A model generated the notes under the pieces. It searched no databases. It was not told the DNA's origin and saw only the letters and a list, made by a program, of their open reading frames with translations. From Thermoproteota archaeon (GTDB lineage Archaea; Thermoproteota; Nitrososphaeria_A; Caldarchaeales; Calditenuaceae): a stretch of DNA of 64,000 bases. The stretch spans positions 1,298 through 65,297 of the forward strand of contig JAUQPZ010000004.1 of assembly GCA_030550155.1 (NCBI GenBank). The letters are read 5' to 3'. Both the position numbers and the translations under genes were made by a program. How positions within the stretch are numbered: the stretch's first letter is position 1; each line of letters opens with the position of its first letter. This document shows, piece by piece, positions 714 through 7,848 of the stretch.

Positions 714-1385
714 ATGGCTGGGACAGGTCTTAGCGTCAAGGCGTCGGAGAAGAAGAAAAGCTCGCCCGAGGACCTGCTCAGGCAGATCGAGGGGCTTCGG
801 GAGCCGATAGAGAAGACTCTGATGGATATCCGCGAAATGATCAGCGCCCTTGACAACCCCTTGATCGGCGTTATGGATGAGCCGGGGCCTCCGCCTTCCA
901 GGGGCTCTGTCTCTGGTGGTGGCCAGGGGTTGAATGGGGTTGGCGCCGGTGGGAGAGAGGGGGGAGGGCTGGCCCCTAGCAGAGCTGGCGGCGTTACGGA
1001 GGGCGGCGTGCAACCTCCTTCTGTCCCTCAGATCACTCTTTCACGCAGCTCCGATGTTTCGCGGTTTAACGCCACGGCCCTCGCGTCACTAGCCGTCTGG
1101 CTTCTGGGGAGGGCGACCTTTGAGAGGCTTGTGAACTCTCTCGCCCTACACTCTCCCGAGAACATCTATTTCACGTCGCTTCTCAGGGAGGCGGCGGACT
1201 TCGTCTCTGCGACTCTCAGGGAGGAGCATGCGCACGCCACGCGGCTGGCCGCCAGCCACGAGTCATATCTTCTCTGCGTAATGCTCCTTGAGCTCTACAT
1301 CTCGAATCCCTCTCAGCCCTCGATAGGCATGGTCGCCTCCTTGATTCAGAGGCTCATCTCGGGGAACGGGGTGAGGGGGGTATGA
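714..1385 (+). CDS. Hypothetical protein, first gene of the archaellum operon (possible archaellum accessory protein)
   Basis: 223-aa ORF with N-terminal helical segment, a Gly-rich linker and a C-terminal ~110-aa domain. No N-terminal TM. Its stop overlaps the next gene (ATGA). Confidence 0.35.
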   Translation: MAGTGLSVKASEKKKSSPEDLLRQIEGLREPIEKTLMDIREMISALDNPLIGVMDEPGPPPSRGSVSGGGQGLNGVGAGGREGGGLAPSRAGGVTEGGVQPPSVPQITLSRSSDVSRFNATALASLAVWLLGRATFERLVNSLALHSPENIYFTSLLREAADFVSATLREEHAHATRLAASHESYLLCVMLLELYISNPSQPSIGMVASLIQRLISGNGVRGV

Positions 1386-1891
1386 ACCCCGCAGGGATCG
1401 TGGGCGAGGCCTACCTGCTGATCATCTCGATGCTGGTGCTCGCGGGGTTCTCCACTCTCTATCACAGCAGCTACTCCGCGATCGGTGAGGCTGTGAGGCT
1501 CGAGGCCGCGGAGCTTAAGGAGAGGATTGAGAAGAGGCTCATCATAGCCGCGGTCTACTACGATGCGGGGCAGGGCCTGCTTGAGGTTTATGTGAAGAAT
1601 GTGGGGCGCGGCGCGGTAACCGCGGGCGAGCTCAAGGCCTCATCCTTCTACCTCATCTCACAAAGCTATTTCCAGCACTTCACCTACTCCGGCTCCGGCT
1701 CAGCGGAGACGTGGAGCTACGAGCTCGTGATGGACAGCCTAGGCGACGGCGTGATGGGTAGGGGCGACACCGTTAAGGCTGTTCTCAGACCTTCGGGCGG
1801 GTTGGCGTCCGGGACCTATCTCGTAAGGCTTGTGCTTCCTAATGGGCGGGTCTCGGAGGAGGTCTTCTCCGTCGGCGGGGTGAGGGGTTAG
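1382..1891 (+). CDS. Archaellum protein of the ArlF/ArlG (FlaF/FlaG) family
   Basis: N-terminal hydrophobic helix (AYLLIISMLVLAGFSTLY) followed by a ~140-aa beta-rich domain. Operon position lies between the accessory gene and arlH. Confidence 0.5.
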   Translation: MNPAGIVGEAYLLIISMLVLAGFSTLYHSSYSAIGEAVRLEAAELKERIEKRLIIAAVYYDAGQGLLEVYVKNVGRGAVTAGELKASSFYLISQSYFQHFTYSGSGSAETWSYELVMDSLGDGVMGRGDTVKAVLRPSGGLASGTYLVRLVLPNGRVSEEVFSVGGVRG

Positions 1892-1892
1892 G

Positions 1893-2408
1893 ATGGGTGT
1901 GAGCTCAACCATCACCACGTCCTTCGCCCTCATGCTCTTGATAGGCGTGATGGCCAACATCCTGACACTCTCCTCCGATGTCAGATACAGCATGGTGGAG
2001 CTGGCAGACTGGCTTAACGGCTACGGATGCCTCCGCCGCTCCGCATACCTCGTAATAACCTCTATAAACGGCTCAAGAGTCACCGCGAGCCTGCTAATTG
2101 ACGGAGATTGCGGCCTCACACTCCGCGACCTAGCCTCTTCCGAGATCTACGCTTATTACCGTCTGGTTCAGGGTGGCGGAGGGTTCAGCAGGCTGAGGCC
2201 GGGGCAGGAGTGGCGCGTCTCCGAGGTCAGGGGCCCTGCCGGTGTGGAGCTGCTCAACCCCTCCAGCCCAGCTCTCTGGGAGGGCGTTCTCGACCCGGGC
2301 GAGGAGGCGAGGATGGAGTTGAGCCTGCCCAGCGATTTTGACCCGAGCTACGGCGTGGTCCTGGTCCTGGTTACGCCTGGAGGCGACAGGGTGGTGGGCG
2401 CGGGTTGA
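1893..2408 (+). CDS. Archaellum protein of the ArlF/ArlG (FlaF/FlaG) family, second paralogue
   Basis: N-terminal TM (FALMLLIGVMANILTL) plus a flagellin-like domain. It overlaps arlH start/stop. Confidence 0.5.
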   Translation: MGVSSTITTSFALMLLIGVMANILTLSSDVRYSMVELADWLNGYGCLRRSAYLVITSINGSRVTASLLIDGDCGLTLRDLASSEIYAYYRLVQGGGGFSRLRPGQEWRVSEVRGPAGVELLNPSSPALWEGVLDPGEEARMELSLPSDFDPSYGVVLVLVTPGGDRVVGAG

Positions 2409-3124
2409 GCGCCGGGAGAGAGCAGGTTGTTCTGAAGCTCCAGAACGAGGAGCTGGACAGGAGGATAGGTGGCATATCCCTGCCCGCCCTGATAGTGATT
2501 GAGGGGCCTAACGACTCGGGGAAGAGCGTCCTCTCCTACCAGCTGATGCACGGAGCCCTCTCGCAGGGGCTCAGGGTCTGCCTGATATCCTCCGAGGGGG
2601 GCGGCAAGACCGTCATCAAGAACATGGAGAGCCTCAACTTCTCCGCGATCCAGCACTTCCTCACGGGCAGACTCCACGTGATCTCCTTCTACGTGAAGGA
2701 CGCCAAGTGGAGACCCGAGTATTCGCGCCTCATAATGGACAGGCTTCTCACCTACATCAACCTGAAGTCGAGCAAGTTTGACCTCTTCGTCATCGACTCT
2801 CTCACAGTCTTCGTGACGGGCGGCGACCAGGAGGACGTCCTCACATTCCTCTCGAGGCTCCGGATGATAAGCGAGAAGAGCGAGGTCAGCATGATCTTCA
2901 CAGTCCACCCCTACGCCCTCACTCAGGAGACGCTGGTCAGGATCAGGTCTCTGGCCGACGCCCACTTCCTCCTCTCAATCAAGGAGGTGGGTGACAAGAT
3001 ATTCAAGACGATGCAGGTGTTGAAGGTGCGCGGGGCCTCCAAGTCATCGAGCCAGACGATAAGCTTTGACGTCGACCCGGTCTTCGGCATCAAGATTCTG
3101 CCCTACACGCAGGTGAAGGTCTAA
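2405..3124 (+). CDS. arlH: Archaellum ATP-binding protein ArlH/FlaH (RecA/KaiC-like)
   Basis: Walker A IEGPNDSGKS in a ~240-aa RecA-fold protein. It lies immediately upstream of the ArlI ATPase. Confidence 0.75.
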   Translation: MSAGREQVVLKLQNEELDRRIGGISLPALIVIEGPNDSGKSVLSYQLMHGALSQGLRVCLISSEGGGKTVIKNMESLNFSAIQHFLTGRLHVISFYVKDAKWRPEYSRLIMDRLLTYINLKSSKFDLFVIDSLTVFVTGGDQEDVLTFLSRLRMISEKSEVSMIFTVHPYALTQETLVRIRSLADAHFLLSIKEVGDKIFKTMQVLKVRGASKSSSQTISFDVDPVFGIKILPYTQVKV

Positions 3125-3126
3125 AG

Positions 3127-5934
3127 ATGTCGGGCGGGCTCGGAGACTTCGGCTCTCTCGAGGAGGCGCTGAGCAGGAACCCCCACTTGGCCGAGTATCT
3201 CGACGCCCTGGAGGGAGAGCCTCCCATATACGCGGTTCAGCTCACGCGGGAGATGCGCTACATGTCGCCCGTCAACATACTCTACCCGATAGGCGACCCC
3301 TACTTCATCCACATCTACTCCGACCCCGCAGGGGTCTGGAACAACTACAGGGCCGTGATGCCCGAGGTCCCGCCAGGGGCTTGGAGCAGCCTCAAAGCGG
3401 TGGAGGAGGCCCTGGCTGTCCGGCTCGCCGAGGAGGAGCCGCCCGAAAACCCTGAGGAGAAGGCGGAGCTATTGTCTAGGCTACTGGAGGAGGTGATTGC
3501 TGAGGATTCCTCGCTGGGGCCCGCCGAGTTTAGGGAGATTAGGCGGCGGGGCGCGGTTGAGGGGATTATTGCGGGGCCGGGGCTGGCCAGGGCTATCCGC
3601 TACGCCCTGGTCTCGGAGAAGGTGGGGCTTGGCGTGCTTGAGCCGCTCATCAGGGACCCCTACATCGAGGACATCAGCTGCAACGGCGTCGGCGCGGTAT
3701 ATGTCGTCCACAAGGTCTTCGGCCCCTGCAGAACAAACATCGTCTTCGATGACGAGAAGAGCCTCGACCAGTTCGTCTACAGGCTCTCACTCAGGGCGGG
3801 CCGCCCCGTGAGCATCCGGAGCCCAATAACCGACGCCGTCCTCCCCGACGGCTCCAGAGTCAACATCGTCTATGGGAGAGACATCAGCAGAAGGGGCACC
3901 AACTTCACTATCAGGAAGTTCACGGAGAACCCCATCAGCATCACCCAGCTGATTAGGTGGAATATGGTGAGCGCGAAGTGCGCGGCCTATCTCTGGCTCC
4001 TCCTTGAGCACAACCTCAACGTCTGGTTCGTCGGCGAGACCGCCTCGGGGAAGACCACGCTGCTCAGAGCGGCCTCGGTGTTCATCGACCCCTCCGCCAA
4101 GATCATCTCCATCGAGGATGTCCCCGAGATCGTGGTTCCTCATGAGAACTGGGTCAGCGAGGTGACGCGGCAGGCTCAGGAGGCAGGCGAGGGTGTGGAG
4201 CTCTTTGACCTTCTGAGGGCCGCCCTGAGGCAGAGGCCCAACTACATTCTCGTCGGTGAGATAAGGGGTAAGGAGGCGGCGATAGCCTTCCAAGCGATGC
4301 AGTGCGTCGCCGAGGCTTATGTAGCCCATCCAGGCGGAGTGGTCAGCGCCTCCAGCCTCTACAGCTCTGCCGCAGCCTCGGCTACGCCGTCCAGCGACGG
4401 GCTAGTCCATCTCAGCACTCCACTCCAGGTCTACGCAACCGCCCCAGGAGAGGGTGTGAGGCTGGCCAGGTGCATCGGCGTCACGAAGAAGTGGGCCTAC
4501 TCCACGGTCAGGGTCGAGACGGGGGACGGGCTCTCGCTGGTCGTCACCCCCAACCACAGGTTCATAACGCTGGTCGGCGACTCGGAGGCGGAGCTCTCGG
4601 CCGCGGAGCTTCTCGAGCTCTGGCGGATGGGGAAGAGGTCGATCACGCTGGCTAGGAGGCCTCCGCCGACGGGCTGCTCCTCCCTAAACATCTACTCGGA
4701 GACCATGACCTTCACACTTGGAGGCGACGCGTGGTGGGCCCTGGGGAGGCTGGCGGGCGGAGACTTCGTCGCTTCCTCGCCGAGGGGGTATGAGTGGGTG
4801 ACCTGGAGCAGGGGCGCGGGGCTGGAGAAGCTGAGGGGCGCGCTCAGGTGCCTCGGCTGGAAGGGCGACGAGAGGCGCGAGAGAGTGATGGGCAACGCCG
4901 TCACAGTCCTCGAGGGCGTCGACCCGCGGCTTATACACTGGGCCCTGACGCAGGGCCACCTTTACACCCGCGGACAGGCACTCACAGGGACAGACAGGGC
5001 TGTCAACCCAATCTACAGGCCACACTTCATCAGCGGAGCCGTCGCGGCGATGAGGGACGCTCAGCGAGTCCTAGGCGAAGACTCGGCTCAGGCCAACGGA
5101 GTTGTCGCGCGCGCCGGCAGAAGGCTGAGGCCTCCTGAGGAGCTGGACCCCGAGCTTGAGTGGGAGCCGCCGCCCCTCAGAGTCACGCTAAACTATGCGA
5201 AGACCGACGTCTGGTCAGCATCCAGGGCTGGCTGCCTCCTCTGGGTCCAAGGCTGCAGCGCCGCAGTCCACAAGGCTCTGGGCTCAGCCTACATATACCA
5301 CTATCCCTCGGCGGGCGCCTGGGTAACCAACGTTGAGCCGGCGGGAGGCTCAGAGGTCTACGATCTAGTCCTCGAGGGCGGAGGCTACTATGTCGGTGGC
5401 CTCGGGCCTGCACACCCCATAATGGATACTGGACACGGCGTCATCTCGACTTTCCACGCGGGGAGCGTCCAGAAGCTGGTCCAGAGGCTTACGGGCGACC
5501 CCATCAGCATCCCCCGCACATTCGTCGACAACCTCAACTGCATCGTAATCCTCAGCGCCGTAAGGCACCCTGTCACAGGCAAGCTCGAGAGGAGGGTTCT
5601 CAGCGTCAACGAGCTCCTCGGCCTCGACCCCGAGACCAGCGGCGTCAACTACGTCGAAGTCTTCGCCTGGAACCCTGTAGACGACACCTTCGAATTCCGC
5701 GGCGAGGGGACAAGCTATCTGCTCGAGGAGAAGATCGCGAAGATGAGGGGGATTCCGAGGAACAGGCTGAGGGAGGTTTACGCGGAGCTCAACAGGCGGG
5801 CGATGTTTCTCCAGCGGCTCGCCGACGCAGGGGTCCTGGACTACTCGCAGATCTACAGGGCTGTGGCGGCTGCCTATAACCTCGGCCTCGAGGAGGCTGA
5901 GAAGGTTGCTATCGAGGGTGCTCAGGAGGAGTAG
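3127..5934 (+). CDS. arlI: Archaellum motor ATPase ArlI/FlaI (secretion-ATPase superfamily) interrupted by an intein
   Basis: Walker A VGETASGKTT, and the conserved GEIRGKEAAIAFQAMQ...TGHGVISTFHAGS is split by ~375 extra residues. Total length is 935 aa, against ~540 aa for typical FlaI. Confidence 0.85.
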   Translation: MSGGLGDFGSLEEALSRNPHLAEYLDALEGEPPIYAVQLTREMRYMSPVNILYPIGDPYFIHIYSDPAGVWNNYRAVMPEVPPGAWSSLKAVEEALAVRLAEEEPPENPEEKAELLSRLLEEVIAEDSSLGPAEFREIRRRGAVEGIIAGPGLARAIRYALVSEKVGLGVLEPLIRDPYIEDISCNGVGAVYVVHKVFGPCRTNIVFDDEKSLDQFVYRLSLRAGRPVSIRSPITDAVLPDGSRVNIVYGRDISRRGTNFTIRKFTENPISITQLIRWNMVSAKCAAYLWLLLEHNLNVWFVGETASGKTTLLRAASVFIDPSAKIISIEDVPEIVVPHENWVSEVTRQAQEAGEGVELFDLLRAALRQRPNYILVGEIRGKEAAIAFQAMQCVAEAYVAHPGGVVSASSLYSSAAASATPSSDGLVHLSTPLQVYATAPGEGVRLARCIGVTKKWAYSTVRVETGDGLSLVVTPNHRFITLVGDSEAELSAAELLELWRMGKRSITLARRPPPTGCSSLNIYSETMTFTLGGDAWWALGRLAGGDFVASSPRGYEWVTWSRGAGLEKLRGALRCLGWKGDERRERVMGNAVTVLEGVDPRLIHWALTQGHLYTRGQALTGTDRAVNPIYRPHFISGAVAAMRDAQRVLGEDSAQANGVVARAGRRLRPPEELDPELEWEPPPLRVTLNYAKTDVWSASRAGCLLWVQGCSAAVHKALGSAYIYHYPSAGAWVTNVEPAGGSEVYDLVLEGGGYYVGGLGPAHPIMDTGHGVISTFHAGSVQKLVQRLTGDPISIPRTFVDNLNCIVILSAVRHPVTGKLERRVLSVNELLGLDPETSGVNYVEVFAWNPVDDTFEFRGEGTSYLLEEKIAKMRGIPRNRLREVYAELNRRAMFLQRLADAGVLDYSQIYRAVAAAYNLGLEEAEKVAIEGAQEE
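4303..5427 (+). mobile_element. Intein (Hint domain plus degenerate LAGLIDADG homing-endonuclease region) inside arlI, ~375 aa
   Basis: Begins with Cys right after AFQAMQ. Block B TPNHRF lies at intein residues 82-87, and block F/G-like VYDLVLEGGGYYVGG is near the C-terminus. A WALGRLAGGDF LAGLIDADG-like motif is present. It ends ...AHPIMD followed by extein +1 Thr (TGHG), an atypical C-terminal Asp. Confidence 0.75.
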
Positions 5935-7396
5935 GGGGCCGCGGGAGGAGGGGCTGGGGAGGGAGGCCGCGCTCCTATACCTCTCCGCCCTGGCCTCCAC
6001 GATCTCGGACGACAACACTTTCCTATCTGCCGTCGATGAGACTGAGGGCCCGCTCTCGGGCAGGCTCCTAGTCCTGAGGAAGGCTGTGAGGCTTGTCAGG
6101 GGTTGGGGCTACCCCGTCTCGTCTGCGCTCTCGGCCGCGGCCAAGACGGCTCCGCGCGGGGAGTTGAGGGAGCTGGCGGAGAAGATGTCTAAGGCGGTTA
6201 ACATCGGGATGAGAGTCCCCGGCCTCGTCTCGACCGAGTATGAGAAGATGCGGGAGCATAGCCAGATAAACTTTGAGAGGGCTATGGAGAGGGTGAAGAC
6301 GATGGGGGATGTCTTCTCCACAATCCTGAGCTCCAGCAGCTTCCTTCTCATCTCCTTCATGATTGCCTCGATAATCTTCAGCGGCATAGACCCTCAAACG
6401 ATCCTCGCCCTGGTGCTGGGAGGCGTGGCGGCGGGGCTCGGCGGAATAGTCTACTACATCTACAGGGTTAGCGGGGTCGGAGGCCTCCTCAACCCCTCAC
6501 CCTACAGGCCCCTCACGGTACACCTCGCCTCCAGGGCCGCGCCCATCAGCCTCCTCGCGACGCTCGCGGCTGTGCTGGTCTCCGCAGCCCTCCTACCCAT
6601 AGAGGCGGCCAGAGTCAGCCTCGCAGCCTTCTCAGCCGCGCTGCTGGGAGCCTACGCCCTACCAGCCATCCGGGTCCGGAAAGTGCCCTCCGTGGATGAG
6701 CAGCTCCCCTTCTTCATGAAGAGTATGGCGGAGACGCTTAGCTCTGTCCAGATACCTGAGAAGGTTGTGGAGATCTTGAAGCTCAATGACTATGGCGCCC
6801 TCAAGAGGCATCTTGACAGGCTCTATCTCCGCGTCAAGAGCGGGGTCGACTTTTACCTCTCCCTCAGAGTCGTGGCAGGCGAGACGTGTAGCAACCTCTT
6901 CTACGAGGCCGTGGAGGTCTTCGTTGAGGCTTTGAAGAGAGGAGTCCCGTCCGGGTCGATGGGTAAGAAGCTCTACGACTACTTGGCTGACAGGATAGCG
7001 ATGAGGAGGCGGAGGGCTCAGGTCTCCTCCTATCTGAGGGGTATTCTCTTCCCCACGGCCTGCGCGGTCTCGGCGATACTAGGCCTCATGGACTCGCTCT
7101 ACCTGCTGCTCTCGAGCTACAGCGCCCTCGCCTCCACAGTCCTCCCACTGGCACCCACCATTCCCCCTGAATATGTCTCAAGAGCCTCCATGGCCATGGT
7201 GATAATGCACTCCTTCGCGGGGAGCCTCGCCCTACACTTCGCTGAGAAGAGAAGCAGAATACATCTCTGCCTCACGTTCGGCCAGCTACTCCTCGCGTCC
7301 TCGCTGACGTATCTAGCCGTCAGCGCTGGAACCCACACGATACTCGACACCATGACGGGCTACGTCAGGAGCCTCAGGGAGGTGGTGCCGTCTTGA
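5906..7396 (+). CDS. arlJ: Archaellum membrane platform protein ArlJ/FlaJ (GspF/TadC-like)
   Basis: 496-aa polytopic membrane protein immediately after arlI, with a 29-nt overlap. It shows the duplicated cytoplasmic domain/TM organisation typical of FlaJ. Confidence 0.65.
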   Translation: MLSRVLRRSRGPREEGLGREAALLYLSALASTISDDNTFLSAVDETEGPLSGRLLVLRKAVRLVRGWGYPVSSALSAAAKTAPRGELRELAEKMSKAVNIGMRVPGLVSTEYEKMREHSQINFERAMERVKTMGDVFSTILSSSSFLLISFMIASIIFSGIDPQTILALVLGGVAAGLGGIVYYIYRVSGVGGLLNPSPYRPLTVHLASRAAPISLLATLAAVLVSAALLPIEAARVSLAAFSAALLGAYALPAIRVRKVPSVDEQLPFFMKSMAETLSSVQIPEKVVEILKLNDYGALKRHLDRLYLRVKSGVDFYLSLRVVAGETCSNLFYEAVEVFVEALKRGVPSGSMGKKLYDYLADRIAMRRRRAQVSSYLRGILFPTACAVSAILGLMDSLYLLLSSYSALASTVLPLAPTIPPEYVSRASMAMVIMHSFAGSLALHFAEKRSRIHLCLTFGQLLLASSLTYLAVSAGTHTILDTMTGYVRSLREVVPS

Positions 7397-7848
7397 CGCC
7401 TGAGGAGATCGCCTTCGCAGCCATCATGATTCTGACGGCCGTGGCGCTAGCAGGCCTCTGGCTCACGACTATGAGGAGCCAACAGGCACAGGAGACGCAG
7501 CCACCACAGGCCGCAGGCCCCCCAGCTCCTCCACAACCCCAAGCAGCGTTGCAGAAGAGGCTCCAGCAACAGCCGAGCCCTCCGAGGCAGGAGCAGAAAA
7601 CAGCCTCTCGGGCAGCCGCGGTGTCCAAGCCCAGCGGTGAGGCGGGCGGAGGAGGGGGTGGCGGAGCTGAGGCCGCTCGGGGTGGCGGGGACTCGGCCGA
7701 GCCTCCCCATGTGGTCTTGGATGCTGTAGAGGCGGGAGACACCAGCCTTGAGGCTCAGAGGATGCTGGAGGAGACCCTCAGCCTCTATGCCGACCTGCTC
7801 CAGGAGATGGAGAAGCTGAAGAAGAAGCTAGGTGAGAAGCTCTCTTAG
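7393..7848 (+). CDS. Small membrane-anchored coiled-coil protein (possible ArlX-like archaellum component)
   Basis: N-terminal TM (IAFAAIMILTAVALAGLWL), a Pro/Gln-rich spacer, a Gly run, and a C-terminal amphipathic helix (LQEMEKLKKKLGEKL). Its start overlaps the arlJ stop. Confidence 0.4.
   Translation: MTPEEIAFAAIMILTAVALAGLWLTTMRSQQAQETQPPQAAGPPAPPQPQAALQKRLQQQPSPPRQEQKTASRAAAVSKPSGEAGGGGGGGAEAARGGGDSAEPPHVVLDAVEAGDTSLEAQRMLEETLSLYADLLQEMEKLKKKLGEKLS

Follow-up and report, generated by a model that had tools for sequence, protein, structure and literature searches.

The arlI gene found in a 64,000-nucleotide stretch of DNA from a Calditenuaceae archaeon (Thermoproteota, Caldarchaeales; assembly GCA_030550155.1, contig JAUQPZ010000004.1; the whole stretch is hereafter called the window) raises two questions, i.e., whether the residues which interrupt a conserved box of the encoded archaellum motor ATPase, ArlI, are an intein, and how an intein ending in Asp could be removed from its host protein. 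The analyses presented below confirm, as far as sequence evidence reaches, that positions 4303..5427 encode a class-1 intein. It is very probable that this intein of 375 amino acids (aa), located directly before the ArlI His box, follows the class-1 pathway with cyclisation of Asp375, and that it represents a family in which the terminal Asp is fixed.

In a phmmer search against the PDB, the ArlI precursor (935 aa, 102.4 kDa) matched the FlaI ATPase of Sulfolobus acidocaldarius (4ii7/4ihq) in two pieces (E=2e-131). Precursor residues 23-392 aligned to residues 6-350 of the FlaI chain, with the alignment ending in ...AFQAMQ350, and residues 766-926 aligned to residues 349-508, reading M-Q-TGHS.... 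As FlaI aligns on both flanks, the host protein is contiguous as AFQAMQ-TGH without residues 393-767 (4303..5427). This FlaI match, together with the placement of the gene between arlH and arlJ, identifies the host as a FlaI-type secretion ATPase. An earlier reading of the window, made from the sequence only, had proposed that the FQAM-x-TGHG box of ArlI is split by an insert of about 375 residues; the FlaI alignment, in which the 4ii7 sequence flanks a 375-aa gap at AFQAMQ350 / T351GH, proved its coordinates and junctions exact. The insertion lies between Gln392 and Thr768; the TGH His box follows it directly, and the Walker B Glu precedes it by 14 residues. Thr+1 and the Gly and His which follow it are invariant in family alignment A3. 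Alternative junctions were rejected, as no other placement of Cys, Ser or Thr restores AFQAMQTGH and Asp cannot serve as the +1 residue. The predicted spliced product has 560 aa (62.2 kDa), and its ligated tryptic junction peptide would be EAAIAFQAMQTGHGVISTFHAGSVQK.

Exactly the same protein of 935 aa occurs on 19 contigs of independent JGI, NCBI and ENA assemblies, and the DNA of the arlI gene differs among them at only 0-3 positions, all synonymous. A sequencing or assembly error was ruled out by this recurrence, and the insert is therefore no assembly artefact.

The assignment of the insert to inteins is based on profile searches, a structural model and the catalytic positions. A single-sequence search with the window insert matched the TvoVMA intein (4o1s, E=1e-4), and a profile built from nine family members and searched against solved structures found solved inteins only, i.e., TvoVMA (4o1s, E=4e-13), the Pho/Tli VMA inteins (about 1e-8), and the Pho RadA, Pab/Pho PolII and CDC21 inteins. 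Relatives of the window intein reached 33.8 bits (E=3.6e-8) with the Pfam model Intein_splicing (PF14890), vs a gathering cut-off (GA) of 35.8. AlphaFold, supplied with a multiple sequence alignment of 10 rows, returned a confident model (predicted local distance difference test score, pLDDT, 85.8; predicted template modelling score, pTM, 0.86), vs a pLDDT of only 34.7 from the single sequence. With the former model as a Foldseek query, the first 40 matches were all inteins (best E=7e-14), and the insert is thus predicted to adopt a Hint fold, with its last beta-strand modelled at residues 371-374. The class-1 features Cys1, block B T-x-x-H, Asp at F:4 of block F and Thr+1 are all present. In family alignment A2, residues P83, N84, H85 and F87 of block B and Y353, D354, L357, G359, Y362 and Y363 of block F are invariant. 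The sequence-only reading had described an insert which starts with Cys and carries TPNHRF and a block F/G-like motif; these features, read from the DNA, turned out to be conserved in the family.

Several results weigh against this assignment. A Pfam search with the window insert gave no match, and the NCBIfam model intein_Nterm (TIGR01445) scored the window copy at 15.7 bits (E=0.022), below its cut-off of 24.5. Furthermore, in place of the C-terminal His-Asn of class 1 (G:6, G:7) the window copy ends in Met374-Asp375, and all three of the usual helpers of step 3, i.e., Asn G:7, His G:6 and the block F His, are absent. Class 2 (Ala1, KlbA-type) and class 3 (WCT) were excluded by Cys1 and by the Asp at F:4.

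The terminal Asp (...AHPIMD/TGHG), pointed out already in the sequence-only reading, is encoded by the GAT codon at 5425-5427, and its significance becomes clear from the relatives. Six of them, at about 40% identity, came from an exhaustive HMMER search covering 1.84 billion representative proteins, pattern scans added 12 species genomes and 15 metagenome loci, and further proteins came from homology searches. Together, these gave 55 members with both junctions, or 38 different inteins (158-622 aa). Word-index homology searches with the insert alone and with two alignments returned almost nothing beyond the query itself, and no relative was found among the viral contigs searched. All relatives sit in ArlI at one site (FQAMQ/.../TGH), in Calditenuaceae (Caldarchaeales) and in DPANN archaea. 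The terminal residue is Asp in 38/38 distinct inteins, and it is therefore a fixed property of the family and no one-off mutation or error. The penultimate position is occupied by Met in 25 sequences, by Glu in 9, by Gln and Tyr in 2 each and by His in none, and the usual block F His is likewise absent (EGGGYY). Cys1 and the block B pattern [TS]PNH[KR]F are each kept in 37/38 sequences, and YD[LI] in all 38. Even the most divergent members (L031 and L033, 21-33% identity) are Asp-ended (YVYD and YTYD), and Cys1, TPNH, Asp F:4, the terminal Asp and Thr+1 are retained down to 21-25% identity. Judging by these sequences, the ArlI His-box inteins are an old allelic family at one site in Caldarchaeales and DPANN archaea, with terminal Asp fixed.

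The ArlI of a Woesearchaeota metagenome-assembled genome (MAG; L016, CAZNIQ010000021.1, positions 798-4313) contains two inteins, as does that of locus L030. Intein 1 of the former (about 455 aa, LAGLIDADG) interrupts the Walker A loop (GETASGK/SVAGYEK...LIIVHN/TTTLNAL) and has a canonical His-Asn end, and intein 2 is a 158-aa, Asp-ended mini-intein at the His box. Because the Walker A intein of the same protein ends in His-Asn, the Asp ending is a trait of the His-box intein lineage and is not attributable to the host protein, to Thr+1 or to the organisms. Another locus, that of Nanoarchaeota archaeon YN1 (AP031373.1, 960..7272), encodes FlaC/D/E, a 128-aa open reading frame (ORF) product, ArlH and an ArlI with a 482-aa intein; this operon is of the euryarchaeal type, and ArlI is followed by a Tyr/Trp-tRNA synthetase gene instead of arlJ. 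A 767-aa protein from a Logan assembly (P0003) has Tyr1 for Cys1, FQTMQ for FQAMQ and TGAG for TGHG, and it is still Asp-ended; it is perhaps a decayed allele which no longer splices, or else the product of a low-quality assembly.

Two further properties of the insert had been singled out in the sequence-only reading, and both required revision. A low-complexity Ser/Ala stretch of about 55 residues, held to be unusual in a Hint domain, was reduced to approximately 20 enriched residues within a segment of normal length and fold. The segment has 55 aa in the window copy vs 55-58 aa in the relatives, to which it aligns column by column (e.g., SELYQSLRKLGEEETSHG and KDLFEEYKNKYGVKIIDG), with weaker Ser/Ala enrichment in L008-L010 (three congeneric species with the same intein). 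It is modelled as strand-helix, with a short helix after the first beta-hairpin (pLDDT 86-95). The enrichment reflects a drift of composition within this clade, a high-GC lineage, and no insertion into the Hint domain.

The second of these properties, a degenerate LAGLIDADG segment, was correctly recognised as degenerate, and the extent of the damage was understated, since alignment gaps and the model show that the second endonuclease half-domain is missing. The first half-domain is complete in the model (alpha-beta-beta-alpha-beta-beta-alpha), and the helix of the second motif is modelled, but no half-domain follows it. Here the window copy is about 100 aa shorter than the YN1 intein, and the 479-482-aa DPANN forms carry those approximately 100 residues. 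The YN1 intein has canonical motifs (LGRLLGDDS and LAGMFDSDG) and thus intact-looking LAGLIDADG motifs, and the two half-domains and two motifs, each with a catalytic acidic residue, expected of a LAGLIDADG enzyme were not found in the window copy. At the other end of the size range there are 238-aa members without an endonuclease and mini-inteins of 158-162 aa, i.e., mini-intein, mid-size and endonuclease-bearing forms coexist in the family. Because its second endonuclease half-domain is lost, the window intein is most likely no longer mobile, and it probably persists because it is still splicing. Such immobility is typically reached late in the homing cycle.

Splicing of the window intein would proceed as follows. 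After translation of the 102-kDa precursor, Cys1 would perform an N-S acyl shift, helped by Thr82 and His85 of block B and by Asp354 of block F, and the resulting thioester would be attacked by the Thr+1 hydroxyl with formation of a branched ester. Asp375 would then cyclise onto its own carbonyl, as the step-3 chemistry, to give a succinic anhydride instead of a succinimide and to free the 40-kDa intein, and an O-N shift would leave the 560-aa ArlI with the AFQAMQ-TGH motif intact. As His is missing both from the penultimate position and from block F, the Asp cyclisation would be assisted differently or driven by high growth temperature. The identifiable hosts are all from thermophile lineages (hot-spring Calditenuaceae and Nanoarchaeota), which suggests that heat may help the reaction. 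Asp-ended inteins are known but rare, in agreement with the sequence-only reading, and inteins ending in Asp, Gln or Glu are considered to use the same pathway with cyclisation of that residue in step 3, other mechanisms being possible (Mills, Johnson and Perler, PMC4031507). The experimental precedent is the Asp-ended Chy RIR1 intein of the Carboxydothermus hydrogenoformans ribonucleotide reductase (RNR), which splices (Amitai, Dassa and Pietrokovski 2004, J Biol Chem 279:3121, cited in PMC4031507). Likened by ending and class, both are class-1 inteins with a native C-terminal Asp from thermophile hosts; Chy RIR1, however, comes from another host protein of a bacterium and is a single case, whereas the ArlI family comprises 38 distinct Asp-fixed sequences.

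Could the insert be a relic which no longer splices? The Hint domain would then have lost its terminal Asn and His, and arlI would be a functional pseudogene, or else ArlI would work with a permanent 40-kDa insertion. The lack of the C-terminal His-Asn in the window copy, the deletion of half of the endonuclease and the missing Pfam match are consistent with such a state, and the Tyr1 and TGAG of P0003 indicate that decay does occur in the family. Selection argues otherwise. The ratio of nonsynonymous to synonymous substitution rates (dN/dS) was determined for the window vs L008-L010 (64-69% intein identity; synonymous divergence, dS, 0.6-1.1), and it amounted to 0.07-0.10 in the exteins and 0.04-0.11 in the C-terminal Hint part (blocks F and G), vs 0.14-0.31 in the N-terminal Hint part, 0.28-0.34 in the middle domain and 0.23-0.25 in the whole intein. 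Since the extein values were obtained in four species which all carry the intein, the function of ArlI is maintained, and since the C-terminal Hint part is as constrained as the host protein, the intein appears to be splicing-competent, vertically inherited and no dead relic. The position of the insert inside the ATPase His box, the retention of catalytic residues, terminal Asp and Thr+1 in strongly diverged members, and the coexistence of forms of different size, as expected for a living intein family, all speak against a relic as well. Taken together, the sequence data argue for a splicing-competent rather than a decaying element, and we consider a relic highly improbable.

A different objection concerns only the chemistry, as splicing could occur without Asp cyclisation, either if the scissile bond of the branched intermediate is hydrolysed or aminolysed directly or if the Asp carboxylate acts as a general base, and the above-mentioned review does allow other mechanisms (PMC4031507). 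The family lacks both residues which commonly assist cyclisation (His G:6 and the His of block F). It also counts against cyclisation as the sole possible step-3 chemistry that in the Chy RIR1 intein studied by Amitai et al. in 2004 a variant with Ala for Asp reportedly still cleaved C-terminally, and alternative models are said to have been proposed. On the other hand, the Asp is strictly invariant and never Asn, Gln or Glu, which suggests a residue-specific chemical role, and cleavage of Asp-X bonds via an anhydride is established peptide chemistry favoured by heat. Splicing by a route other than cyclisation is thus unlikely. Slightly less probable still is that the intein is conditional, i.e., that owing to the Asp ending step 3 is slow and varies with temperature or pH, so that splicing gates archaellum assembly post-translationally and the element is not a neutral parasite. 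The thermophile hosts fit this idea, as do the often slow step 3 of inteins with non-Asn endings (PMC4031507), the retention of the intein despite its defunct endonuclease, and the dN/dS of about 0.3 in the middle domain. However, retention is fully explained by the cost of an imprecise deletion in a catalytic motif, and the constraint on the middle domain may stem from folding needs alone. We would grant similarly small chances to the broader proposal that the ArlI His-box inteins form a distinct mechanistic subgroup (obligatory terminal Asp, no penultimate or block F His, Thr+1), in which a heat- or pH-dependent aspartyl anhydride gates ArlI maturation and motility in hot-spring Caldarchaeales and in DPANN archaea. 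Class-1 splicing with Asp cyclisation is therefore retained as the preferred reading.

As regards other known inteins, the archaeal VMA inteins (TvoVMA 4o1s; PhoVMA/TliVMA 7qst, 7qsu, 7qss) match the family profile, but their host is the catalytic subunit of the A-ATPase and their insertion site is another one. They have canonical endings, the C-terminal residues themselves lying outside the alignments printed. An ATPase active-site motif is a usual location of inteins, and in that respect the ArlI intein is ordinary. For archaeal VirB11/FlaI-type ATPases (COG0630), 21 inteins are on record (Novikova et al. 2016, PMC4760082). A studied example among them, the Mja KlbA intein (2jmz/2jnq), is of class 2, with Ala1, a terminal Asn and Cys+1, in contrast to Cys1, the terminal Asp and Thr+1 of the ArlI intein; it was not matched by the ArlI family profile at E<0.1, and in a search with a chimeric query the KlbA flanks gave no alignment to AFQAMQ / TGH, which suggests that the two insertion sites probably differ. 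The Pol II (Pab, Mma) and CIV RNR inteins share with the ArlI intein a non-Asn end which cyclises in step 3, their splicing often being slow (PMC4031507), but they have a terminal Gln and other hosts. In the literature searched, which was covered in part and did not include InBase, no report of an ArlI His-box intein or of an Asp-fixed intein family was found. Asp-ended inteins and inteins of archaeal VirB11/FlaI-type ATPases are already known and the type of element is not new; what appears to be new, on the sequences compared here, is an allelic family at the ArlI His box with an invariant Asp ending, shared by Caldarchaeales and DPANN archaea.

The plus strand of the window encodes an archaellum operon, in which arlI is flanked by arlH (5') and arlJ (3'). 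The coordinates of the operon genes and of the intein features are compiled in Table 1.

Table 1. Features of the archaellum operon and of the ArlI intein (positions in the window)
Feature	Position	Strand	Evidence or remarks
Two small genes, hydrophobic N-terminal segments	1382..1891 and 1893..2408	+	1382..1891: weak ArlG/ArlF match, E=4e-4
arlH (KaiC-like), directly 5' of arlI	2405..3124	+	NCBIfam FlaH PRK06067, E=3.6e-72
arlI (flaI) precursor gene	3127..5934	+	ORF list; Pfam T2SSE, E=1.9e-28; S. acidocaldarius FlaI 4ii7, E=2.3e-131
N-extein, residues 1-392; ends in Walker B ...LVGEIRGKEAAIAFQAMQ	3127..4302	+	aligns to FlaI 6-350; dN/dS 0.08-0.09 vs L008-L010
Intein, 375 aa, 40.1 kDa, Cys1 ... 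Asp375	4303..5427	+	
Cys1 (TGC), block A nucleophile	4303..4305	+	read from DNA; Cys in 37/38 distinct family members
Ser/Ala-rich segment, intein residues 15-34, SASSLYSSAAASATPSSDGL	4345..4404	+	65% Ser+Ala
Block B T-P-N-H (Thr B:7 = Thr82, His B:10 = His85)	4546..4557	+	37/38 match [TS]PNH[KR]F
First LAGLIDADG motif LGRLAGGDF, Asp154 kept	4741..4767	+	
Degenerate second LAGLIDADG motif FISGAVAAMRD, catalytic position without acidic residue	5026..5058	+	aligns with YN1 FLAGMFDSDG
Low-confidence linker, intein residues 260-285, at the position of the relatives' second half-domain	5080..5157	+	pLDDT 37-54; gaps in A2/A3
Block F, VYDLVLEGGGYYVGG; Asp354 = F:4; no block F His	5356..5400	+	aligns to VYDL...FIGG of TvoVMA intein
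Block G, LGPAHPIMD; penultimate Met374, terminal Asp375 (GAT 5425-5427)	5401..5427	+	
Thr+1 (ACT 5428-5430), C-extein nucleophile, then Gly-His; start of His box	5428..5436	+	aligns to T351-G-H of FlaI
C-extein, residues 768-935, and stop codon	5428..5934	+	aligns to FlaI 351-508; dN/dS 0.07-0.10
arlJ, start overlaps arlI end	5906..7396	+	NCBIfam ArlJ/FlaJ, E=2e-51

The operon begins with a 223-aa ORF (714..1385) which has no family assignment. The two small genes located upstream of arlH gave no match in a Pfam search and are possibly ArlG/ArlF-like. Directly 3' of arlJ, positions 7393..7848 (plus strand) encode a 151-aa protein with a transmembrane helix at the N-terminus, a linker rich in Pro, Ala, Gln and Gly, and a coiled coil at the C-terminus; family searches gave no match for this protein, and it could be an ArlX-like scaffold. 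A scan of the 64-kb window with a class-III signal peptide pattern found no archaellin (ArlB) gene next to the arl operon, which may therefore be incomplete in the window. This result is not conclusive, as the pattern could have missed a strongly diverged filament gene, or the latter may be located in another part of the genome. In another population of the same species (L002, GCA_038885695.1, JAVZZL010000022.1), arlJ is called as two genes (331 and 207 aa) and, beyond about position 6901, the locus no longer runs in step with the window, which points to a disruption of arlJ by an insertion or indel in that population.

In NCBI, the 935-aa protein is named "ATPase, T2SS/T4P/T4SS family [Nitrososphaerota archaeon]"; the genes of the family carry simply this ATPase label or are split into partial proteins. 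In one NCBI MAG (P0001 / P0032; MEM4591607.1 and MEM4591608.1), the gene is broken at a contig end near the N-terminal intein junction, and the two pieces are annotated as two partial proteins, one of them "hypothetical", i.e., the intein confuses annotation.

The family described here comprises 38 sequences of 158-622 aa from two archaeal lineages, in all of which a rare terminal Asp is fixed. Because it offers many natural Asp-fixed sequences, mini-inteins included, it is better suited than the single Chy RIR1 case for studying step 3 without Asn and without the helper histidines, and its thermostable 158-162-aa mini-inteins may find use in protein engineering. For the organisms themselves, the insertion inside the ATPase His box and the strong purifying selection acting on the exteins suggest that motility would depend on protein splicing. 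The standard models of Pfam and NCBIfam overlook the intein in the window copy, and, since annotation and these models miss it, motility predictions for Calditenuaceae and Nanoarchaeota MAGs would rest on an unrecognised splicing step.

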